A stretch of DNA of 64,000 nt from a virus: IMG/VR virus record IMGVR_UViG_3300050015_000702, one strand, 5' to 3'. The notes under the pieces are model-generated. The model was not told the origin of the DNA and did not search any database. It worked only from the letters and a program-made list of their open reading frames with translations. Position numbers and translations under genes: made by a program. This document shows positions 2,815 to 55,923 of the stretch, piece by piece; position 1 is the first letter of the stretch, and every line of letters starts with the position of its first letter.

Positions 2815-3776
2815 TATTCTATATCTCCCATAGCATTGTACAATGCATCATTTATAACATCTGGTTCCCAGTCTCCCATCCATGCACTACCAGAAGGCAC
2901 AGTCCATTTTATTTTTTCATCACCAGTAGCAATACAATATGATAGAAGTTTTAATCCTTTTTTAGAAATTTCTCCTACGAGAATTTCTTTCTCATTATAT
3001 TCAGGTTTTTGAGTAAAATCAAAATGTTTCATAATAGCACTTTGAAGACTTTTTAGACATGCATCTTCATCTGCTACTGACTGTGTTTCTGAAAATGCTC
3101 GCTGAACAGCTTCTTTTAAAGTTTCCAGCTCTTCATTATCATTTATCTAGTTTAATAAATCGTCTAAGCTCGTAACATTTTCTGGGGATGCCCCCATTTC
3201 TATAGCAGTTGTCTTTAAATCTTCAAGAGCTGGGACATTTCCTTTTTCTACGGTTTTGCTTAAATACCAGCCGGATTGAGTAATATCTTCATACTCTTCC
3301 ATATCTCTTTCAAAATGTTCGTAAGAATCTTCCCCGCATAAAACATCTCCTATAAATTCTAAACTAACATCTCTACTCTGCGAATCAAAAAGATCTCTGA
3401 AATCAAGCCAAGCACCAAAATGAAGATAATATTTGTCCCCTTCTACTGTATAGCCAAAATCATTACCCATAATAGGAAGGTAAGGAATCCATTCGATATT
3501 ATTTTGCTTCAAGACATAATAAAGATTTTCATCAGCCTCTGTAGCATATTTTTTAGGCATGGTAATTAGAAATTGAGCCCACTTTTTACGAGTCTCTGTA
3601 TCTAATTCTAAATTTGAATTATCCAAAATATCATAAACCCAGGATCCCGGCTGTTCACCAGAATGTTCCTCCATAAACTCATTAATGGTTGCTTCAAGGC
3701 CAATTCCAAGAGTTTCTTTACTCATAGGTCCCCGTTCAAAATTTTGAACCTCTAATATTGATTCAGGAACTAGCAT
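2814..3776 (-). pseudogene. FERG-module protein interrupted by a single in-frame TAG (3147-3149); pseudogene, readthrough or sequencing error
   Basis: ORF 3147..3776 continues past TAG as INDNEELETLKEAVQRAFSETQSVADEDACLKSLQSAI in frame into ORF 2814..3032. Confidence 0.65.
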
Positions 3777-9087: not shown

Positions 9088-9100
9088 TTGTTATATTTTT

Positions 9101-10687: not shown

Positions 10688-11493
10688 TTTCTTTTAAATC
10701 TGTCAGGATCATAGACCCCCTTATTTCTTAATATCTTTAAAATTTTAATAAAACTATATTTGTTATCAAATGCTTTTTCAATCTTTCTAGACCCCATTCT
10801 TTTATTTACATACAAATCAACAATTAAATCTTCGTCTTCTTTCGAAACATCCTTGTATGCGGTATTATCTTTTCCATATCTTGGCGGACCAAAGTTTTGA
10901 GCAAAATGTTTACCCTGCAAAGATTTAGATATATTTTGTTTTCTTTCTTCTGTGTGTTTTACATCTAAAAGAGAATTTCGAATTTTGTCTTTTGTCTCTT
11001 GTTTTCTTGTTTTACCAGTATTAGATTTTGCACGTTTATTTTTTTCTTCTTCAGATTGTATTCTACCAATACCAATTCCCCTTCTCCCTATACTTTGTTT
11101 TTTCTTTATTTCTTTTGCTTTTTCTTCACCAAAGATTTCTTCAAATGTTTTTCCCTTTCGTATTCCTAAATTAGAAATAGTATAATTTCCCCCGCCTTTT
11201 GTCAAATTATATCCATCCGGTCTAATAGTATTATCTCGATCTATATAGAAAATTTCTCTTTCATTTAGAATTTGTATTAATTTTTCACTATTTTCATTTT
11301 TTCTTTCTTCTATAATTTCCCATTTAATATTGGATTCGCCATACTTTCTTATAGCATTATGAAAATATAAATTTGACCCACTTCTAACAGCAGCATAATG
11401 ACTATATTTTCTTTTTTTTAATCCTTGAATGGTTCTTCCATAATATTTTTTTCCTTCTGGAGAAGTAGCACAATAGATTATTCCTTTTATCAT
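10684..11493 (-). mobile_element. free-standing GIY-YIG homing endonuclease with NUMOD3-like repeats
   Basis: GIIY...KKYYGRT, GYNLT.GG, (H/Q)SEE/TEE repeats; start 11493 behind promoter 11508-11516. Confidence 0.85.
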
Positions 11494-15153: not shown

Positions 15154-15162
15154 GGATATATA
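15154..15162 (+). promoter_or_regulatory. putative late promoter (GGATATATA) for the tail operon
   Basis: Recurrent motif 20 nt upstream of ATG 15183. Confidence 0.65.
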
Positions 15163-24165: not shown

Positions 24166-24801
24166 ATGAATTTCTACGTTTATTTAATTCAAAATAACAT
24201 TACCAAGAAAAAATATATTGGTAGTAGAATGGCATATAAAGGGGAAGATCCTTTAAATGATAAGTATATGGGGTCTTCTAAACATTTAAATGAAGACTAC
24301 AAAGTATATGGTATTGAAAATTTCTCAAAAGAAATCTTACAGTCAAACTATACAGATAAAATTGAGATGATAAAAGGCGAATCCTTTTATATGAGACAAT
24401 ATAATACTTTTGAACCAAATGGATATAATAGATACGATCCAGCCGACAGAATAGGATTTCATGTGGGTGGATGTAAAAAAAGCGAACAATCAAAGGAAAA
24501 ACAAAGCAAATCCTCCGCAGGAAATTCTCCATGGAACAAAGGAAAAAAAGGTTTGCAACATCATTCCGAAAAAACTAAAGAACAAATATCTACTAATACT
24601 AAAGGAGAAAATAATCACAATTTTGGAAAAACTTTTGCACCAGAGAAAAATCCGATGTTTGGAAAAACTGGTGAAAATCATCCTTGTTTTGGAACAAAAA
24701 GAAAACGAGTAATCTGTGAATATTGTAAAAAAGAAATTCCAACAAATATATATTCTTTATGTCACGGAGACAAATGTAAATCTAAAAAAATCGCAATATA
24801 A
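24166..24801 (+). mobile_element. free-standing GIY-YIG homing endonuclease (NUMOD3, C-terminal Zn ribbon)
   Basis: FYVY...KKYIGSR, YMGSS, PNGYN, HSEKTKEQIS, CEYC...HGDKCK. Confidence 0.85.
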
Positions 24802-37797: not shown

Positions 37798-38628
37798 ATG
37801 ACAACTTTAACTAAAATTTTAAAGGCTATCTGGGGATTTGTTAATAGCAAATTCCTCGGATATGCTGTAGCAATAGTCTTAGTACTTATGCTAGCTCAAA
37901 CCTGCAAAAAGAATTCTGATCTGAAAAAAGAAAAAGCTCAGCAAGAACAAAATATGGCAGCAAAAAATGATACGCTTCATCAGCAGAAGCTTAAAACAGG
38001 CGAACTCCAATTTACAATTGATGGATATATTGCCAGTGTAAAAGATCTTAAAAATATCAATAAAGATCTTGCCGACGAAGTTGATAAACAAAAAGGAACC
38101 GTAGTTAACTTGAATAAAGTGGTAGTTCTTTTAATGCAGGATACAACTGACTTAAGGAAATATATTAACGAGATAAAATCTGCAAAAGAAAAACCAACAA
38201 AAGTAAACGATACAACTTATTCAGTTCCTTGGACATTAGCATATAGTTATGATTCCCTAAATTATGATTTATTCAAGGGGAGAACTAAAATTGGATTAAC
38301 CGTAAGAGATAAATCCCTTGCAAAATTTGATTTTTCAAATGTAAATGTTTTGAACGAAGGAAGCGAACTTCTAACGAGAATGACCCAGATGGAATTAGTT
38401 TATGGTCAGAAATATGTCAAAGGAAAATTGGTTGTATTCGCCAATAGTAAATACCCCGGATTTCACGTTGTAAACATGGAAGGATTTACTGTCCCTGATC
38501 CTCCAAAGAAACATTGGTTTACCGGATGGAATGTTCAGCTTGGAATAACCCCCACCTGGGATTTTGTTAATAAAAAACCGATTATCGTAGTTGGACCTTC
38601 AATTGGATGGTCAATTTACCAGTGGTAA
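37798..38628 (+). CDS. membrane-anchored coiled-coil protein, spanin-like candidate
   Basis: N-terminal TM (+Cys), coiled coil, C-terminal amphipathic beta hairpin ending in W. Confidence 0.5.
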   Translation: MTTLTKILKAIWGFVNSKFLGYAVAIVLVLMLAQTCKKNSDLKKEKAQQEQNMAAKNDTLHQQKLKTGELQFTIDGYIASVKDLKNINKDLADEVDKQKGTVVNLNKVVVLLMQDTTDLRKYINEIKSAKEKPTKVNDTTYSVPWTLAYSYDSLNYDLFKGRTKIGLTVRDKSLAKFDFSNVNVLNEGSELLTRMTQMELVYGQKYVKGKLVVFANSKYPGFHVVNMEGFTVPDPPKKHWFTGWNVQLGITPTWDFVNKKPIIVVGPSIGWSIYQW

Positions 38629-38666
38629 GATAGATTTCAAAATATGAGCAAGTAAAGTTTTTCTAT

Positions 38667-38675
38667 GAATATATA
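38667..38675 (+). promoter_or_regulatory. putative late promoter of the GIY-YIG gene
   Basis: GAATATATA 12 nt upstream of ATG 38688. Confidence 0.65.
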
Positions 38676-38687
38676 AATAAAAAATTC

Positions 38688-39338
38688 ATGGAAAAACTTT
38701 TTAATTTTGTTTATGTTACAACTAATTTAATAAATGGAATGAAGTATGTTGGCGAATATTCTACCAACGATATAAATTCATATGAATCCAGGACTTATCT
38801 AGGGAGTGGAAGACCATATTTTAAAAATGCTCTTAAATTTTATGGTAGAAATAATTTTTATAGGGAAATATTAGAATCTTTTCCTACAAAACAAGAAGCT
38901 TTTAATGCTCAAGAAAAATACATTATTCAATTCGATACTTTAAAACCCAATGGATATAATTTAAATCCAAAGGGGGGCAATCAATGTAAAAATACAGGGC
39001 CATGGTTAAATAAGAATTTATCCGAAAAGCATAAAGAAAATATTTCTAAATCCCTTATCGGAAAAAATACATGGAGTAAGGGATGCCATCAATCAAAAGA
39101 AACAAAAAATTTAATAAGTTTATCAGAAATGGGTAAAGAGATTTCGGATCAGACAAAATTATTAATGTCATTAGCATCCGAGGGGAAACCTAAATCGGAA
39201 GATCATGCGAAAAAATGCAGAATAGCTAGATTAGGAAAAACAGTTCCAAAAATATTTTGTAAATATTGTCAAAGAGATTACGCCAATTATATGTATACTC
39301 TTTATCATGGAGAAAAATGTAAAAAGAAGAATATATAA
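38688..39338 (+). mobile_element. free-standing GIY-YIG homing endonuclease
   Basis: FVYVTTNLINGMKYVG, YLGSG, PNGYN, SE.HK..IS repeats, CKYC...HGEKCK. Confidence 0.85.
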
Positions 39339-39350
39339 AATAAATCGAAT

Positions 39351-41144
39351 ATGACAAATATCAGTAAATACGTTCAACTTAATGACTTCCTCTTATTAGA
39401 GTATGAATTTAATAAGGATCAGTTTAATGTTACCCCATTAACTAACATTGGTTCTCTTTGCATTTCGACAAACATTGGAAGCTTCCAATATATTAATACG
39501 GGTGCTGATAGAGCTGTAACAAATAACGACTTTGGTTTAAACTCTCTTCCCGAAAATCCATCAAGAACTACTTGGTATTGTTATCCTCCGGATATTTCTA
39601 CAAATTATTCCAATTACTTTGCCCATTGCGATAGTTCGACTTTGGTTAACGTTCCTTCTTATGCTTTGGATACCATTAAGGTTCATATTATTTCAGGGTA
39701 TAACTTTGATGATGTTGCTGGGTTCTTACTTCAAATTAGAGCAAAAAACACAGGAGGAAACTTTGTTGACCTTGCAAACTTTACCTGGATCAATCAGATT
39801 CTTGAAGCTGGAAGTAATGTTATTAATTTTTCTACAAATGCTTTATATTTAGCAAATAGATTTTATGACAAATATGTTCAGTTTAGGATTCCTTCTATTC
39901 AAGTTCTTGGAGGGGATACTGTTACTCCGCTTGGTCTAGCTTTAAATATTAAACAGCTATCTGATGTTTTCATCACATATAGTACTATTCCTAATATTAA
40001 TGTTGACACGTATCTTATTCAGGAGCAAATTTCAGTTCAACTTCCTGTAACAAGTGTTGCAGATAATTTCAATTGCTTTATTGCTGAATCAACTGGTGGG
40101 GACTATATCGAATTCTATGCTACTTGGAACCAAATAATTATTGGGGAGTACATGGGAGACATTGAAAGCGGAAAAATCCGTTTATTCACTTCTAACAACC
40201 CCAATGATAATGCAATGGATTTTGCCGATACTTATGGTGCCGGAGCAGTGAAATGGGTAATTATGCATGAATTAGAAGTTTACGAATTAATTCCAGGAGG
40301 AACAACACTTCTAACTCAGAAGTATGTATTTACTCAGGAAGATAACTTTATGAATGCTAACTTCTTCCGTCCGGTTCTTAGGAATGCCGATATTGATTCA
40401 GCTTATCAAATAGATTATACTTGCCGATTAGTTAACCGAATGGACGGAACCCAGGTTATCAGAAAAGCTTCTTTCGCTTCAACAGATCCTAAAAAATATG
40501 GTTTGCAGTTTGATCGTTTAAATGTTGACAATTATATTCCTTACAAAGTTTTTAATAGAATTGAAGGGGAAGCTTTTGTTCAAAACATTACATCGGGAAC
40601 CCAACAATCCAAATTTGTCAAAGTATTTTACGATACAACGACTGTAGGTATGAATATGAATAATGAAATTCTTCCCCAGGGAACAGGTCCTTTATTCTTA
40701 AAAAGAGGAGATGGCGCTTATCTATTCCATTTTCAAAAAATCGATACAGCAAATGGGGATCAAGTTAATAATGTGGATCTTTCGGGAGCTTATAATTACG
40801 GTCTTTTGTTTATCATGGATGATCAGTCAAAGTTGGAAATATCCCCAACCTACAGCACCAATATGAATACTGTACTTGGACAACTTGAATTCAAAATTAT
40901 GGAAGGACAAGTTTCGAAACTTTTACAGCAAACAAATAACGCTTACTCGATTGTAGTTAAAAATCCGGATGGATCCCAATACACTTTCTATGAAGGAGTA
41001 TTCTTTAGCTATAGTAATATGGATCAGGTAATCACTCAATTTAATAATCTGGTGAATGTATCTGCTCTAAATACCCAAATAGCTTCATTACAAGAACAAG
41101 TTAAAACCTTAACTGATCAAAATACAGCTCTCAAAGCTAAGTAG
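39351..41144 (+). CDS. structural protein (baseplate/tail-associated), C-terminal coiled coil
   Basis: 597 aa; own late-promoter motif at 39329-39337. Confidence 0.5.
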   Translation: MTNISKYVQLNDFLLLEYEFNKDQFNVTPLTNIGSLCISTNIGSFQYINTGADRAVTNNDFGLNSLPENPSRTTWYCYPPDISTNYSNYFAHCDSSTLVNVPSYALDTIKVHIISGYNFDDVAGFLLQIRAKNTGGNFVDLANFTWINQILEAGSNVINFSTNALYLANRFYDKYVQFRIPSIQVLGGDTVTPLGLALNIKQLSDVFITYSTIPNINVDTYLIQEQISVQLPVTSVADNFNCFIAESTGGDYIEFYATWNQIIIGEYMGDIESGKIRLFTSNNPNDNAMDFADTYGAGAVKWVIMHELEVYELIPGGTTLLTQKYVFTQEDNFMNANFFRPVLRNADIDSAYQIDYTCRLVNRMDGTQVIRKASFASTDPKKYGLQFDRLNVDNYIPYKVFNRIEGEAFVQNITSGTQQSKFVKVFYDTTTVGMNMNNEILPQGTGPLFLKRGDGAYLFHFQKIDTANGDQVNNVDLSGAYNYGLLFIMDDQSKLEISPTYSTNMNTVLGQLEFKIMEGQVSKLLQQTNNAYSIVVKNPDGSQYTFYEGVFFSYSNMDQVITQFNNLVNVSALNTQIASLQEQVKTLTDQNTALKAK

Positions 41145-41157
41145 GCATAAAGACTTA

Positions 41158-41190
41158 AAGTACGACGTTAATCTTCAAGTACGACGTTAA
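41158..41190. repeat. 14-bp direct repeat AAGTACGACGTTAA x2 (19-bp period)
   Basis: Exact copies at 41158-41171 and 41177-41190. Confidence 0.85.
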
Positions 41191-41197
41191 CTTTCAC

Positions 41198-41228
41198 AAA
41201 AAACCTTCTAATTTCTTAGAAGGTTTTT
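41198..41228. terminator. bidirectional intrinsic terminator between convergent operons
   Basis: AAAAACCTTCTAA-TTTC-TTAGAAGGTTTTT. Confidence 0.85.
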
Positions 41229-41340
41229 GCTGGAGGTTGGTCCAAACATATGCTAGGGCATTTGTATTTCCCTTTAATAGTTACACTAAGCTTTTAAATA
41301 AAAATTGAGCAGCGAGCTCCTAACGCGGCCTAGCGTGAAG

Positions 41341-41859
41341 TTAAAATAGGCCCTTGATGGCTGCGAATAAATGCTGAATAATATCATATTTCAACACTAT
41401 CCAAGAAAGACCAGCAACTAAAATTCCTCTGGTAATAACATACTGAAGATTCAGTCTATCAAAGGCAAATCTATAGATTGCTCCATAAGTTAAAGTTGGT
41501 TCGTCTTCGTCATCAAAGAACTGATTAAATTCGGGAATTATGTTACCAGCAAATCCTAATTCTTCATCAAGATACTGGTGAACAGGAGCAAGAAGCTCCA
41601 TAAGTCGAAGTCGCTTAATATTCTCGGGCAAATTATAATCGGATTCAGGAAGAGATACAGGAGTATAAAGAACATAAAAATAATTATAGTCTATTTTATA
41701 CTTGTTCAATTTAGACTGAGGATTAGCTGCTTCCGCTTTAATTGTACGAATCCAGCTACGATAATTCTCAATGTCCCTCCAAACCCTAACAAAGGGGATT
41801 TTGGTCCATAAAGGCTGATGTCTAGCCTTCTTTTTAGTCATTCTCTGATTCTTCATCAT
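41341..41859 (-). CDS. hypothetical protein with C-terminal TM
   Basis: 172-aa ORF coupled to the sigma gene. Confidence 0.55.
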   Translation of the reverse strand: MMKNQRMTKKKARHQPLWTKIPFVRVWRDIENYRSWIRTIKAEAANPQSKLNKYKIDYNYFYVLYTPVSLPESDYNLPENIKRLRLMELLAPVHQYLDEELGFAGNIIPEFNQFFDDEDEPTLTYGAIYRFAFDRLNLQYVITRGILVAGLSWIVLKYDIIQHLFAAIKGLF

Positions 41860-42466
41860 AATATGCTTCGATAAGGTCTGGATGCCTTTCTTTTAATGTG
41901 TCAGCGACATCCTTTCTGGCTTTTCTTAATCTGGTTTTAACGGTATTAAGGTTCCAGTTAAGATCGGCTGCAATATCTTGCAGTCTTTTATTGTTAATCT
42001 CTCTTTCGAAGATAACAGTTCTATAAGGTTCTTCTAAGTTATCAATTGCTTCAATAACTTTATTATACAAGTTAGTCTTGAGTTCTTCACCGCTAGGTCC
42101 TATTACTTCGAGGTTAATTGAAACCATCGGAGTATAAAATTTAAGAACTTTTGAATGATTCTCATCAAGTCTTTCTCTGGAGACAGTTTTTGAACGAGAT
42201 CTAAGTTGTCCGAGGGCTTCATTTTTTGCTATCGCATAAACCCAAGTTGAGAAGTTAAAATCTCTGTTATACTGGTCCATTTTCTCCCATACAGCTATAA
42301 AAGTCTTGGAAACGACTTCTTTTGCTAAATCAGAATCCTTTACGTAACGATATACGAAAGAGTTTAGTCCGGGTTTTATCCTGTTAATAAGATATGTGAA
42401 TGTTTTGTTGTCTTTTTGTTCCAAAAAATCTATTGCTAGATTTTGAATTGAGATTTCTTTGTCCAT
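41834..42466 (-). CDS. ECF-type sigma-70 factor
   Basis: Region 2 (LAKEVVSKTFIAVW...Y..DFNFSTWVYAIAKN) and region 4 (LEEPYR...DIA..L....NTVKTRLRKAR); start set at MDKEIS. Confidence 0.9.
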   Translation of the reverse strand: MDKEISIQNLAIDFLEQKDNKTFTYLINRIKPGLNSFVYRYVKDSDLAKEVVSKTFIAVWEKMDQYNRDFNFSTWVYAIAKNEALGQLRSRSKTVSRERLDENHSKVLKFYTPMVSINLEVIGPSGEELKTNLYNKVIEAIDNLEEPYRTVIFEREINNKRLQDIAADLNWNLNTVKTRLRKARKDVADTLKERHPDLIEAYYDEESEND

Positions 42467-42467
42467 A

Positions 42468-43163
42468 TTAAGTATAGTGTCCATTAATAAATTTTTTACC
42501 TTTATTCCATGGGGTTGTTCCCCTTTTGGATTCACTCATATGAGTTTTAGCCTCCTTTGACTTCGGCTTTCTCATATGTTTTTTATGTTCTTCAGTTTTT
42601 GGTTTTCTCATTAATTCTTTGGTTTCTTCTGATAAAGAAACCCCATTACGAGAATTAAATAATGCTAACTTATGTTCCTCTGTTAATTCTTTTCCCCATC
42701 GATGATTTTTTTCACCCATGTGAGCATTGCTCATTTGCTGCCTTGTTTTTTCCGATGGGTGCTTTCCCCAGCTAGGATTTTTTTCTCCTTTTTTTGAATA
42801 AGCTATTTTTTCTTTTGTTTTTTCTGATCGGGTATAATGACATCCGCCTGTATGAAATCCTCTGTTTTTATTTGGCAGAAATCGATTATATCCATTTGGG
42901 GATAGGGTATTGTATTTTAAAATGTAATGGGTTTCCCCATCTAACAGATCCTCTACATTTTTATAATTATCTTGAAGTATCTGTTTTTTGAAATTTTCAA
43001 TACCATATATTTCATAATCTAGATCAAGATATTTAGAAGACCCCATATACCCATCTGTATTGGGGTCTTCTTTATAACATATTCGACTACCTACATATTG
43101 TTTATTCAAAACCAAATTGGTTATTAAATAAACATAGTAAAATCGAGGAGTTCTTAAAGACAT
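42468..43163 (-). mobile_element. free-standing GIY-YIG homing endonuclease
   Basis: YYVYLITN...KQYVGSR, YMGSS, PNGYN, multiple SE.TK NUMOD3 repeats. Confidence 0.85.
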
Positions 43164-43219
43164 ATAGTTTATTCTATATATCCAATTGAAATCTCTTTTT
43201 TTTGCGATAGTGAGGAATC

Positions 43220-48916: not shown

Positions 48917-49182
48917 AAGTCTCGTGAAAAATGGTGCTTCTTAAGCTGCCATTCTCATTTCGTTAACAGTTTCGCCGTTTACTTGCGTTACTGGAATAAT
49001 CGTTATCTCCCTCAATATGCAGTCAAAGCCAGGTCAGCCCCGATTTGTGCGGATCGAAAATAAGTTTGTCTAAACTCACCGCACTTAGTTTAAGATAATC
49101 GGCAATCGATTGTGGAGCTGCCGCGAATCGAACGCGGGTGTTGCATATCTACTCTATAATTAGCTCTTTCGAGCACTCCCAA
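48890..49182 (-). ncRNA. ssrA: circularly permuted (two-piece) tmRNA
   Basis: Acceptor piece (T-arm CCGCG-TTCGATT-CGCGG, CAGCTCCA, ends 49113) precedes coding piece (GGGGCTGACCTGGCTTTGAC from 49041); G3.U70 pair; TGCATAT/ATATGCA helix; tag 48976-48941 = GETVNEMRMAA* with the stop in a hairpin loop. Confidence 0.9.
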
Positions 49183-49907
49183 TATCTTTTTCCTATTTTA
49201 ATAATAGGACTTGTATCTTCAAAAAATAATTTTTCAATTTGATTAAAATCAATAAATTCCCTTTCATCTATTCTAATTAATCTGTATCCATTCTCGATAC
49301 ACCACTCTTCAAGCAATTTATCTTTGAATCGTTTTGTTTCTAATTGATGATGTATATCCTTAAAATGCCAAATACCATCATATTCAAAACAAATTTTTAA
49401 AATATCCGAATATAAATCCCTTCCTATCCCCGTTTCCTTATATCTTAAATTCCCTCCTGATTTCCAATTATATTGAGGATAATGAGCTTTAAAATATTTA
49501 ACAATTTCCCTTTCTTTTGATGAAGAAAATTTTATATTTGTACTCTGTTTTTGTTGATAAGTTTCGGTATAATATATTCCATTTTTCCAGGCTTCTTTTA
49601 TAGCATTGCTGCTTCGAATTTTTCCTTCTTCTGTATGAATTATTTTTGTATTAGCACAGGATTTACAACAAAATCTCCTTTTAATACCTCCTTTTCGATA
49701 TTTGATGTGAATTATATTATTGCATAATTCTGCTTCACATTTAATATCCTCTTCTATATATTTTCCGAATCTTTTTTCGTTCGTTTTTAAGGCTTCTTTT
49801 GAAAGTTTTTCACCTAATTTTGAATTATCTCTATGCTGCCATCTTACATGATTTGCCTTCGCTTGAAAGGTTCCAAATTCTTCTTTACATTCTCCGCAGA
49901 CATACAT
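49149..49907 (-). mobile_element. free-standing Zn-finger + Vsr/DUF559-like endonuclease
   Basis: C2H2 finger, FCCKSC, RDLY...ICFEYDGIWH...D......GYRLIRI; 3' end overlaps the tmRNA. Confidence 0.8.
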
Positions 49908-49965
49908 AGTTTTATTCTATATATCCGTATGGAGCTGGTAAGTTTCGAACTCTACCGTTAAAGTT

Positions 49966-50370
49966 TTAATACTGGCTTCTTTGCAGTGGTTCAAAATACC
50001 ATTCCCATTTATCTAAAGTTCCCCAAGTATGAAAATTAGAAGGTGATTTTCCATTACTCAATTGAACAATAGCTGTTCCATTTTGCAGCTCTTTTGCATG
50101 TTCTAAACTCCCCGCTCTTTCTAAATGCATTCCTATAGGATTCGACATAATAACATTATAAGCCCAGAAGTAAGTATCTGCTGGATAATGATCTCCAAGA
50201 ACATAATCGGGTCCTATTTCTCCATTAATCTTTTTAACACTAAAATCTATTTTAGACTTAATTATATCCCCAGACTTAACACTAGCCATGGTTTTTAAGC
50301 CAATATCTAGAGCTTTATAGGGTTCCTGATGTTGTTTAAATATTTTTTCGTTTACAAATTCAGCTTTCAT
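49966..50370 (-). CDS. FERG-variant module protein
   Basis: FVNEKIFKQHQEPYKALDIG then ..KSGDII, homologous to the modules in the upstream gene. Confidence 0.6.
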   Translation of the reverse strand: MKAEFVNEKIFKQHQEPYKALDIGLKTMASVKSGDIIKSKIDFSVKKINGEIGPDYVLGDHYPADTYFWAYNVIMSNPIGMHLERAGSLEHAKELQNGTAIVQLSNGKSPSNFHTWGTLDKWEWYFEPLQRSQY

Positions 50371-53796: not shown

Positions 53797-54594
53797 TTAT
53801 ATATTCTCTTTACATTTATCCCCATGCCATCTATTATAATTCCCAGGATCCATCATTTTATGACAATGGGGACATTCTTTTTTGTCATATATTTGACCCA
53901 TTCTGCCTTTGCTGATATTTTTGCATGTGGTTTCGCTAGCTTTTTTGCCGACTCGAGTTTTGCTCATTTTATCTTTCATTAATGAAAGTTTTTTATCAGC
54001 TTCTTCTTTACCAAATTTTTCTTCCCATATCTCAAAAACAGTTTTTTGAAACATTGGATTTTCTTCTCCAACTCTTTCACTAGCACGTTTACTCATTTTT
54101 TCAATGGTCTCTTTAGAAAATATTCCGGTTTTCCCTTTACACCAACAATTCTGCCCAATATGAGATTTGCTTATATTTTGACAATGCTCATTTGTAAATT
54201 TCCTTCCACTTAATCCTTTACTAATGTTCGTTTTCCATTCTGCTGTTCGAGGAACTTTACTGAATGATTCTCGAAATTTATCGATGGATGCTTTTGTCCT
54301 TCTTCCTGGTATTTCTCCATTTCCCCCATTTGGATGAATGTTATACCCAATCGGAATAAGTGTTTTATATTTTATTATATTGGGTTCTTCGAGTTTTCTA
54401 GCTTCATGTAAGGTTTCGCATTTCTGTAATATTTCCTTTTTAAAAGATTCCTTACCATATTTCTTTATGGATCTTCTAATTAAATTACCACTGCCTAAAT
54501 ATCCATCGTCTATATTATTGGTAGTATGAGCTCCGACATATTGTTTTCCATTGACGATATTAGTTGTTAAATAAACATAGTGAATATTTCCCAT
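53797..54594 (-). mobile_element. free-standing GIY-YIG homing endonuclease
   Basis: YVYLTTNIVNGKQYVG, YLGSG, GYNI, NUMOD-like repeats, CPHC...WHGDKCK. Confidence 0.85.
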
Positions 54595-54643: not shown

Positions 54644-55348
54644 TTAAGTTTTGTCTCCTATTGATACGATTCCTTTTGAACCCAGGTCATAAATCTTATA
54701 TAATTGAGCCTGATTCATCTTTCGGAATGCATTTTTAGGTTCATAAAATGGTATAAATTTCCATTCTGAATATTCCACCATTCTGAATTTGGTTACTTTT
54801 GGGAAAGAATATTTTCTATAAGCGAAATTAAAATTGGCGGCATTCTTACTATTGAATAATTTGATCATTGTCTGACCCCCGCCGCTCTTCATGTAATCTA
54901 CAAATCGTTTATTTATGGCTTCCTTATTATTCTCTGTAAGATTTTCTACCTTGTCAAAAAAGTCTTTAAAAGTAAGAAAGAATGAATCCAAAAATTTAAG
55001 ACGAACATCTGGAGGAAGTAAATTTAGATTGATACCGGAAAATGTTCCTCTGTCCTGATTCATACAAAAAGTTAAGGGAACAAAGTCTGTATATTCCTTG
55101 TTTCCTTTTTGTAATTCAATTAGAACATTTGGGCCTTGGTAAATGAAAGTATAAACAAATCCGGGAATAGGATACCCGCCATTCTTAGAACCAATAACAC
55201 TTTCCTGATCCGTTGAATCGATTTCAGTGAGTTTAGCATCCCCTTTTAGATTTTGGACAATATATTTTTCGAATAAGATTGAGTATGCCTGGTCAGAGAT
55301 TCCATTGACCCTTTGCATAATCTTATATTCATCGGCAGGAGCTAACAT
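54644..55348 (-). CDS. DNA end protector, T4 gp2-like
   Basis: G.VYTF.Y...D..PL.F......F.GINL..LPP..R..FL; FA.RKY. Confidence 0.7.
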   Translation of the reverse strand: MLAPADEYKIMQRVNGISDQAYSILFEKYIVQNLKGDAKLTEIDSTDQESVIGSKNGGYPIPGFVYTFIYQGPNVLIELQKGNKEYTDFVPLTFCMNQDRGTFSGINLNLLPPDVRLKFLDSFFLTFKDFFDKVENLTENNKEAINKRFVDYMKSGGGQTMIKLFNSKNAANFNFAYRKYSFPKVTKFRMVEYSEWKFIPFYEPKNAFRKMNQAQLYKIYDLGSKGIVSIGDKT

Positions 55349-55923
55349 TTTACTAAATTTTTTGTTCGATTATTATTTCCCATTCTAGATTTGCTCATAT
55401 TTCGCTTAGTTTGTTCAGACATCGGAGGCCTATTTTTGGCGGCTTCCTGCATATTCTTTTTATGCTCTTCCGAAAAATCCCCATTTCCATTATTTCTCCT
55501 TGTGTCCCAAATTGCTTTTTTACTTTCAGCGGTATGTTTGGGCTTACTCATTTTTTGTTTAGTTATTTCGGATCTTTTTATACCCAATAAACTATTTTTA
55601 ATTTTTTCTTTACTTTCTTCAGAAAAACATTCAACAACTCCAACCCCTCCTTTTGGACTTAAATTATATCCATTTGGTTTTAATGTATTATGCTCTTTAA
55701 TATATTTTTCTTGAGCATCAAAGGAAGATTGTTTAGATGGAAAAAACTTTAGAATTTCCTTTTTGAAATTCTCCTTTCCGTATTTCTTTTTAGCATTATT
55801 AAAATAAGGGCGTCCACTACCAATATAATGATCATCCAAATTATTGGTTGAGTGATCTCCGACATATTTTTTGCCATTGATTAAATTTGTCGTCAAATAA
55901 ACATAATTGAACTCTTTTTCCAT
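55342..55923 (-). mobile_element. free-standing GIY-YIG homing endonuclease
   Basis: YVYLTTNLINGKKYVG, YIGSG, PNGYN, SEE.K repeats; similar to 38688..39338. Confidence 0.85.

Follow-up and report, generated by a model that had tools for sequence, protein, structure and literature searches.

The closest described systems come from phage T4 and its relatives and from fungal mitochondria. In T4, homing can proceed with homology on one side only, and the event is then completed by illegitimate joining at microhomology (PMC2988022). Expression of I-TevI, I-TevII, I-TevIII, segB and mobE of Aeh1 is controlled by a hairpin that silences read-through transcripts, while transcripts from an internal late promoter are translated (PMC2988022). 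I-TevI, in addition, is an autorepressor that acts at a sequence resembling its homing site, over its own late promoter; operators that share 15/20 nt with the homing site overlie the promoters of I-TevI and probably of I-TevII and I-TevIII (PMC2988022). In fungal mitochondria, C-terminal duplicates of atp6 and cob are found beside homing-endonuclease ORFs (PMC6279837).

The locus analysed here lies in a viral DNA of 64,000 nucleotides (IMG/VR record IMGVR_UViG_3300050015_000702), the whole of which is called the window. On its plus strand, a 276-aa gene with no family match (37798..38628) forms the left border of an insertion slot, and in most related loci a homologue of it stands ahead of the 597-aa gene. 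It is followed by a 59-nt leader (38629..38687, +), by a 216-aa ORF (38688..39338, +) and by a conserved gene of 597 aa (39351..41144, +), the presumed homing target. Judged by its domains, the 216-aa ORF is a free-standing GIY-YIG homing endonuclease. Its GIY-YIG domain scores 26.7 bits against PF01541 (cut-off 22.6), phrog_314 (homing endonuclease) is matched with E = 1.9e-28, and residues 108-144 form a NUMOD3 repeat (PF07460, 27 bits, cut-off 20.4), a separate DNA-binding module. In about 160 related loci, the distance that separates the 597-aa gene from its upstream neighbour was measured. Most of them, including the endonuclease-free relatives, have an A-rich spacer of 13-27 nt, and the two genes are separated by 21 nt in P0002 (84% identical, the closest relative) and in L004 (82%). 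Elsewhere the same slot is occupied by GIY-YIG genes of several lineages (P0004, 77% identical, and L085, L007, L102, L010/L109, L141, L036, L167, L171 and L173). The distribution of the endonuclease is sporadic even among close relatives, since it is absent in those of 84% and 82% identity and present in that of 77%. The closest endonuclease, in P0122, is 85% identical, has the same length of 216 aa, lies behind a gap of 59 nt and occupies the same slot; the 597-aa homologue beside it is only 65% identical to that of the window, so that the two phylogenies are incongruent. This pattern of presence and absence, together with an endonuclease of 85% identity beside a target of 65%, indicates that the slot is a homing hot spot and that the endonuclease is mobile. 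Loss of the endonuclease has left scars. In L099, a 65-nt spacer keeps only the last endonuclease codons; in L008, a 158-nt spacer contains NUMOD3-like debris; and in L013, the 5′ part of the endonuclease is deleted and the upstream ORF is fused to its middle. A 46-nt spacer in the same slot of L086/L087 was also counted as an endonuclease-loss scar.

Hundreds of metagenomic phage contigs encode homologues of the protein of the presumed target gene, and distant relatives occur in Flavobacterium phages and Lak megaphages. The N-terminus of this protein is nearly invariant across 120 homologues, and the first 22 residues are almost unchanged. Searches of Pfam and PHROG with the 597-aa sequence gave no match. 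The structure model consists of multiple beta-sandwich domains and a C-terminal helix (pLDDT 68), and its comparison with solved chains gave TM-scores of at most 0.17, with no specific fold match and no function assigned. The gene probably encodes a virion protein. Downstream of it, at 41150-41235 (+), a sequence of about 15 nt is repeated almost perfectly in direct orientation, with the two copies about 20 nt apart, and a terminator-like inverted repeat with a T-run follows.

The 59-nt leader of the endonuclease gene contains a short echo of the start of the 597-aa gene. Positions 38634-38654 read ATT TCA AAA TAT GAG CAA GTA (ISKYEQV), and codons 4-10 of the resident gene, counted from its ATG at 39351 and found at 39360-39380, read ATC AGT AAA TAC GTT CAA CTT (ISKYVQL). 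A re-reading of both segments bore out the figures of an earlier, sequence-only reading, in which five of the seven residues but only 12 of the 21 nt are identical and Ser is encoded by TCA in one and by AGT in the other. The stretch sits in the same frame as the GIY-YIG ORF (ATG at 38688), is directly preceded by a TAG codon (38631-38633) and lacks a start codon, and the similarity extends to 38663 (ISKYEQVKFF versus ISKYVQLNDF).

Taken without comparison to other phages, the match is weak. When the spacer was shuffled by dinucleotides, 13 of 3000 shuffles agreed with the first 20 residues at 5/7 (p ~0.004), and 30 of 300 did so somewhere in the whole 597-aa protein (p ~0.1). At the DNA level, local alignment of the leader with its own downstream gene was not significant (324 of 500 shuffles were as good), and its best hit fell in another, out-of-frame register. 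The one-in-ten frequency of such peptide matches and the failure of the DNA alignment are what a chance resemblance in an A/T-rich spacer has in its favour. This explanation is nevertheless very improbable, because the match falls on the very start of the adjacent gene, because the site is the top profile match in the spacer, because clearer versions stand at the equivalent place in four homologous leaders and because two loci have unmistakable pseudo-starts. The profile was a position matrix built from 80 independent homologous 5′ ends of the gene, with the window excluded. It ranked the site at 38634 best in the spacer (shuffle p ~0.01), and an equally high score was reached at only 9-11 of about 128,000 window positions. 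When compared with individual alleles of the 597-aa gene family, the segment agrees at up to 18/21 nt, and at up to 23/30 nt over its longer extent. It shares 16/21 nt with the endonuclease-free relative L004, against 12/21 nt with the resident gene. The proposal of the sequence-only reading that the copy represents a different allele, and did not arise by recent duplication of the resident one, is thus upheld, since the segment is far nearer to other alleles than to the resident one. A resemblance to the end of an adjacent gene has therefore been found that exceeds chance and is repeated in independent loci. Taken together, the sequence comparisons make it likely that 38634..38663 (+) is a decayed copy of the beginning of the 597-aa coding sequence, from codon 4 to about codon 13, which derives from a different allele and is carried in the leader of a mobile cassette. 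Today this relic has no coding role. An N-terminal extension of the endonuclease was considered and rejected, as there is no in-frame ATG, GTG or TTG upstream of 38688 and other leaders have stops in that frame. A mini-ORF at 38644-38655 (four codons including the stop) was also discarded; it is kept in L141 only and is absent elsewhere.

The leaders of four other endonuclease genes, those of L141, L171, L172 and L174, align with that of the window and share two blocks with it. One of them corresponds to window positions 38634-38645 and the second adjoins the endonuclease start codon. In the frame of the 597-aa gene, the first block and the letters that follow it read ISKNVQV in L141, NISKYIKV in L171 and ISKYAHFNYF in L172, and in the last of these the codons at the V, Q, L and D positions are each one nucleotide away from those of the gene. 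At the equivalent sites the matrix gave p values of ≤ 0.001 for L141 and L171 and ≤ 0.004 for L172, with scores above that of the window. The genes upstream of these leaders are of three kinds, the 276-aa family, a 128-aa gene and an ankyrin-like gene. Since the same relic follows three different upstream genes, it is part of the cassette and no feature of the surrounding genome. Scans of IMG/VR for the leader, with exact and gapped patterns, returned first no hit and then 92; a GIY-YIG start followed none of the 92, so that all were regarded as chance A/T-rich matches. A scan of the genome contigs with the 85%-identical endonuclease found no match.

Two loci preserve a less decayed state. Further upstream of its endonuclease, L141 has an intact 30-nt pseudo-start with an ATG (MPTNISKYVQ), and L036 has a pseudo-start with an ATG (MNNISK, about 20 nt), which is followed by a stop and preceded by the gene's usual A/T motif. 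By contrast, the matrix test detected no significant relic in five endonuclease lineages of the same slot (L085, L007, L102, L010 and L167), which implies either that a relic is not obligatory on insertion or that the relics there have decayed away. The relics of the window, L171, L172 and L174 have no ATG and abut the preceding stop codon, so that a simple insertion model needs later deletions. Behind the stop codon, the sequence of the window agrees with that of L004 for 7 nt before the two part, a short tract at the place where illegitimate repair would be expected to leave a junction at microhomology.

These observations can be arranged into a history of invasion, stranding and carriage. 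The cassette would consist of the leader, the endonuclease gene, a promoter-like motif and an intact gene 5′ end that is supplied to the target gene. Repair of a double-strand break, homologous on the side of the gene and illegitimate on the other, would bring the cassette into the 5′ end of the target gene. The old 5′ end of the recipient's gene would thereby be stranded upstream, in the state seen in L141 and L036. Later, the stranded 5′ end would lose its start codon, which would give the state seen in the window, and the relic would then be copied together with the endonuclease from phage to phage. As a whole, with the repair pathway proposed from its products, this explanation is probably right. 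In L141, three gene starts stand in a row at about 2950-3060, an intact pseudo-start, an older relic and the real gene, and between the pseudo-start and the relic lie the apparent last codons (KNNI, stop) of another endonuclease. That locus may have been invaded several times in succession.

An alternative role for the relic is that of a short homology arm on the left, which would let the cassette home despite a differing upstream neighbour gene. It would fit with the position of the relic, which bounds the common cassette sequence on the left in three contexts (the window with L172, L171, and L141), and with the documented one-sided repair at microhomology in T4 intron homing (PMC2988022). 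Recombination at the relic, however, should keep the spacer of the recipient, its ATG and its first codons, and these are missing in the window, L171, L172 and L174. Moreover, the pseudo-start and the older relic of L141 lie side by side and are not merged, and a relic of 12-30 nt is short for homologous recombination in phages. A homology-arm function is therefore improbable.

The different Ser codons had led the sequence-only reading to another proposal, according to which the resident gene has been synonymously recoded (Ser TCA to AGT, and others) against its own endonuclease and the intergenic copy represents the sensitive allele. A survey of alleles gave no support to it, since Ser is encoded by AGY in 4 of 11 endonuclease-bearing and in 16 of 44 endonuclease-free alleles (Fisher p = 1.0), that is, the class of the Ser codon is unrelated to the presence of the endonuclease. 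The accompanying expectation that endonuclease-free phages would use ATT TCA AAA TAT held in part: the endonuclease-free L004 has a TCN codon for Ser (ATT TCC AAA TAC), in agreement with recoding. Two further differences are weak hints of immunity. Endonuclease-bearing alleles have on average 7.2 mismatches, versus 5.5 in endonuclease-free ones, to a relic-like consensus over 21-33 nt (p ~0.015), and Gln at codon 10 is missing in 5 of 11 endonuclease-bearing versus 7 of 44 endonuclease-free alleles (p = 0.049); the consensus, however, is dominated by endonuclease-free alleles, and both tests ignore phylogeny and multiplicity. Other data speak against the idea. The P0122 endonuclease, 85% identical, in the same slot and with the same 59-nt leader length, stands beside an allele with Ser TCG. 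The displaced, and presumably invaded, 5′ end in L141 reads AGT AAA TAC GTT CAA, which is the resident version of the window except for Ile (ATT versus ATC). Finally, over codons 1-30 the window has a synonymous divergence of 0.40 from L004, the same level as over the whole gene. Immunity by recoding has accordingly little probability, about as little as a homology-arm function. A co-conversion tract was sought by a sliding comparison of the window with L004 and was rejected, as there was no local excess of synonymous change. In a nearest-neighbour scan, L004 came 47th over the first 20 codons; the ranking was just as noisy in other conserved stretches, and the scan was judged uninformative.

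The leader also contains the elements of a putative control region. A predicted RNA hairpin at 38654..38700 (+) is formed by a 17-bp stem, with its 5′ arm at 38654-38670 and its 3′ arm at 38684-38700, and a 13-nt loop (38671-38683); an outer helix pairs 38643-38652 with 38706-38715. The fold has a free energy of -21.6 kcal/mol (z = -5.56), and none of 200 shuffles was as stable. The 3′ arm holds the endonuclease AUG (38688-38690) and codons 2-4, and the relic runs into the 5′ arm just 3′ of the 21 nt that encode ISKYEQV. Hairpins that bury the AUG are also predicted in the same register in L174 (z = -4.2) and L172 (z = -2.5) and, from a different sequence, in L036 (z = -4.1); the leaders of L141 and L171 form at most a weak one. 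Across the leaders, the sequence of both arms is conserved, and they display little covariation. A 14-nt promoter-like A/T motif containing TATAAATA lies at 38669..38682 (+), with 38669-38670 in the end of the 5′ arm and 38671-38682 in the loop. Motifs of this type occur 20 times in the window, where 7.7 are expected, and most stand 5-29 nt ahead of a gene start, on the strand of that gene. Copies with TATAAATA-like cores were located by motif search at 15156, 22237, 31819, 38669 and 39331 on the plus strand and at 9099, 13711, 43581, 45092, 47340, 53791, 54602 and 61133 on the minus strand. The copy at 39331..39344 (+) overlaps the stop codon of the endonuclease and would serve the 597-aa gene, and a similar layout is found at the 3′ ends of the endonuclease genes in L085, L102 and L141. 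The motif, which resembles the T4 late promoter, is probably the promoter that the phage uses for these genes. With the AUG in the stem and the motif in the loop, read-through transcripts would be silent and internally started ones translatable. That is, in transcripts that come from upstream, the endonuclease AUG would be buried, and transcripts presumed to begin inside the hairpin would have no 5′ arm and could be translated.

The neighbourhood of relic and promoter-like motif raises the question of whether the relic acts as a functional mimic of the target, in which case the endonuclease would bind the leader as an operator and repress its own gene without cutting. Such a function is compatible with an origin as a relic and has a precedent in the known I-TevI-type operators, which have 15/20-nt identity (PMC2988022). 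In the window, the relic is just upstream of the motif. The 12-nt block that the leaders share is identical at 11-12 of its 12 positions between the window and L141, L171 and L172, compared with only 57-62% identity at the third-codon positions of the endonuclease, although this excess of conservation is mild and was chosen post hoc, 11/12 matches at 0.6 identity per site having a chance of ~0.02. Also in its favour, a second endonuclease of the window has a verified look-alike that abuts a promoter-like motif. On the other side, part of the block is lost in L174, there is no detectable mimic in the five same-slot endonuclease lineages, and in the window the block lies 23 nt from the motif and not over it. 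An operator function is thus tentative, a reading with perhaps a modest chance of being correct; from the sequences, a regulatory role for relics in general is possible.

The second endonuclease gene (42468-43163, -) provides a parallel within the window. Its leader (43164-43219, -) contains a 13/15-nt copy of codons 3-7 of the downstream sigma-factor gene (start region at 42430-42466, -), which is placed directly before the promoter-like motif of this endonuclease; 8 of 500 shuffles were as good. A 10-bp hairpin in the same leader pairs the motif with the AUG region. The sigma-factor ORF was listed as 41834-42535 (-), from a GTG at 42535 (233 aa), and in this form it overlaps the second endonuclease gene. 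Its relatives have lengths of 209-212 aa, so that translation of the sigma factor probably begins at the ATG at 42466-42464, directly behind the stop codon of the endonuclease gene. Further GIY-YIG homologues are located at 24166-24801 (+), 53797-54594 (-) and 55342-55923 (-), and a fragment lies near 11185-11367 (-). Together with the gene at 42468-43163, there are at least four further homologues and a fragment, with identities of 30-44%, a heavy load for 64 kb. Another leader in the window (49908-49970, -), that of the gene at 49149-49907, forms a hairpin that includes the start region (z = -3.1). In a quick alignment, this leader had no significant similarity to the end of the adjacent RNA gene (68 of 500 shuffles), and the gene itself was not matched in the window search for GIY-YIG endonuclease homologues.

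A more general idea is that insertion relics are the raw material for the control regions of endonuclease genes. Several GIY-YIG genes of this phage would keep a look-alike of a neighbour's start by the motif and an AUG-burying hairpin, and each enzyme might repress itself there. This generalisation is speculative and somewhat less probable than the operator function of the single relic. If true, it would explain the origin of I-TevI-type operators. The main interest of the locus is this link between insertion relics and endonuclease control regions, which is a variant of known homing-endonuclease biology, and the relics suggest a testable origin for the homing-site look-alikes at T4 endonuclease promoters. 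The relic itself is a tidy and fairly ordinary trace of the invasion by a selfish gene. It is also a handle, obtained from sequence only, on the entry point of the cassette in the target gene. At a single site in uncultivated large Bacteroidota-type phages, all stages of the homing cycle can be found, as empty sites, several endonuclease lineages, scars and relics of displaced ends. For annotation, the locus carries the warning that short peptide-level echoes of a gene beside an endonuclease are insertion relics, and neither recoding nor a new coding feature.

In comparison with known systems, the endonuclease resembles the T4-like Seg family in its GIY-YIG domain and NUMOD3 repeats, in its intergenic position beside a conserved gene and in its sporadic presence among close relatives, and its nearest homologue occupies the same site in a distant genome. 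It differs in its host, a large Bacteroidota-type phage related to Flavobacterium and Lak phages, and in the relic of the target-gene 5′ end in the cassette leader, which is not described for Seg genes in the review PMC2988022. The predicted hairpin is similar to those of I-TevI, segB and mobE in that a stable structure covers the translation start and contains a promoter-like motif with TATAAATA; in contrast to them, the AUG and codons 2-4 are paired here instead of the Shine-Dalgarno sequence, and the promoter is putative. As with the I-TevI operator, a look-alike of the presumed target lies immediately upstream of the endonuclease gene and near the promoter-like motif. Here, however, it is a visibly decayed copy of the coding start of the neighbouring gene, its role as an operator is putative, and it stands beside the motif, whereas that of I-TevI lies over the promoter. 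The fungal atp6 and cob duplications share with the history proposed for this locus the arrival of a replacement host-gene end together with the endonuclease and the persistence of the displaced end as a fragment. The window would represent their mirror image in a phage, with the 5′ end of the gene replaced and a relic of only about 30 nt left upstream.
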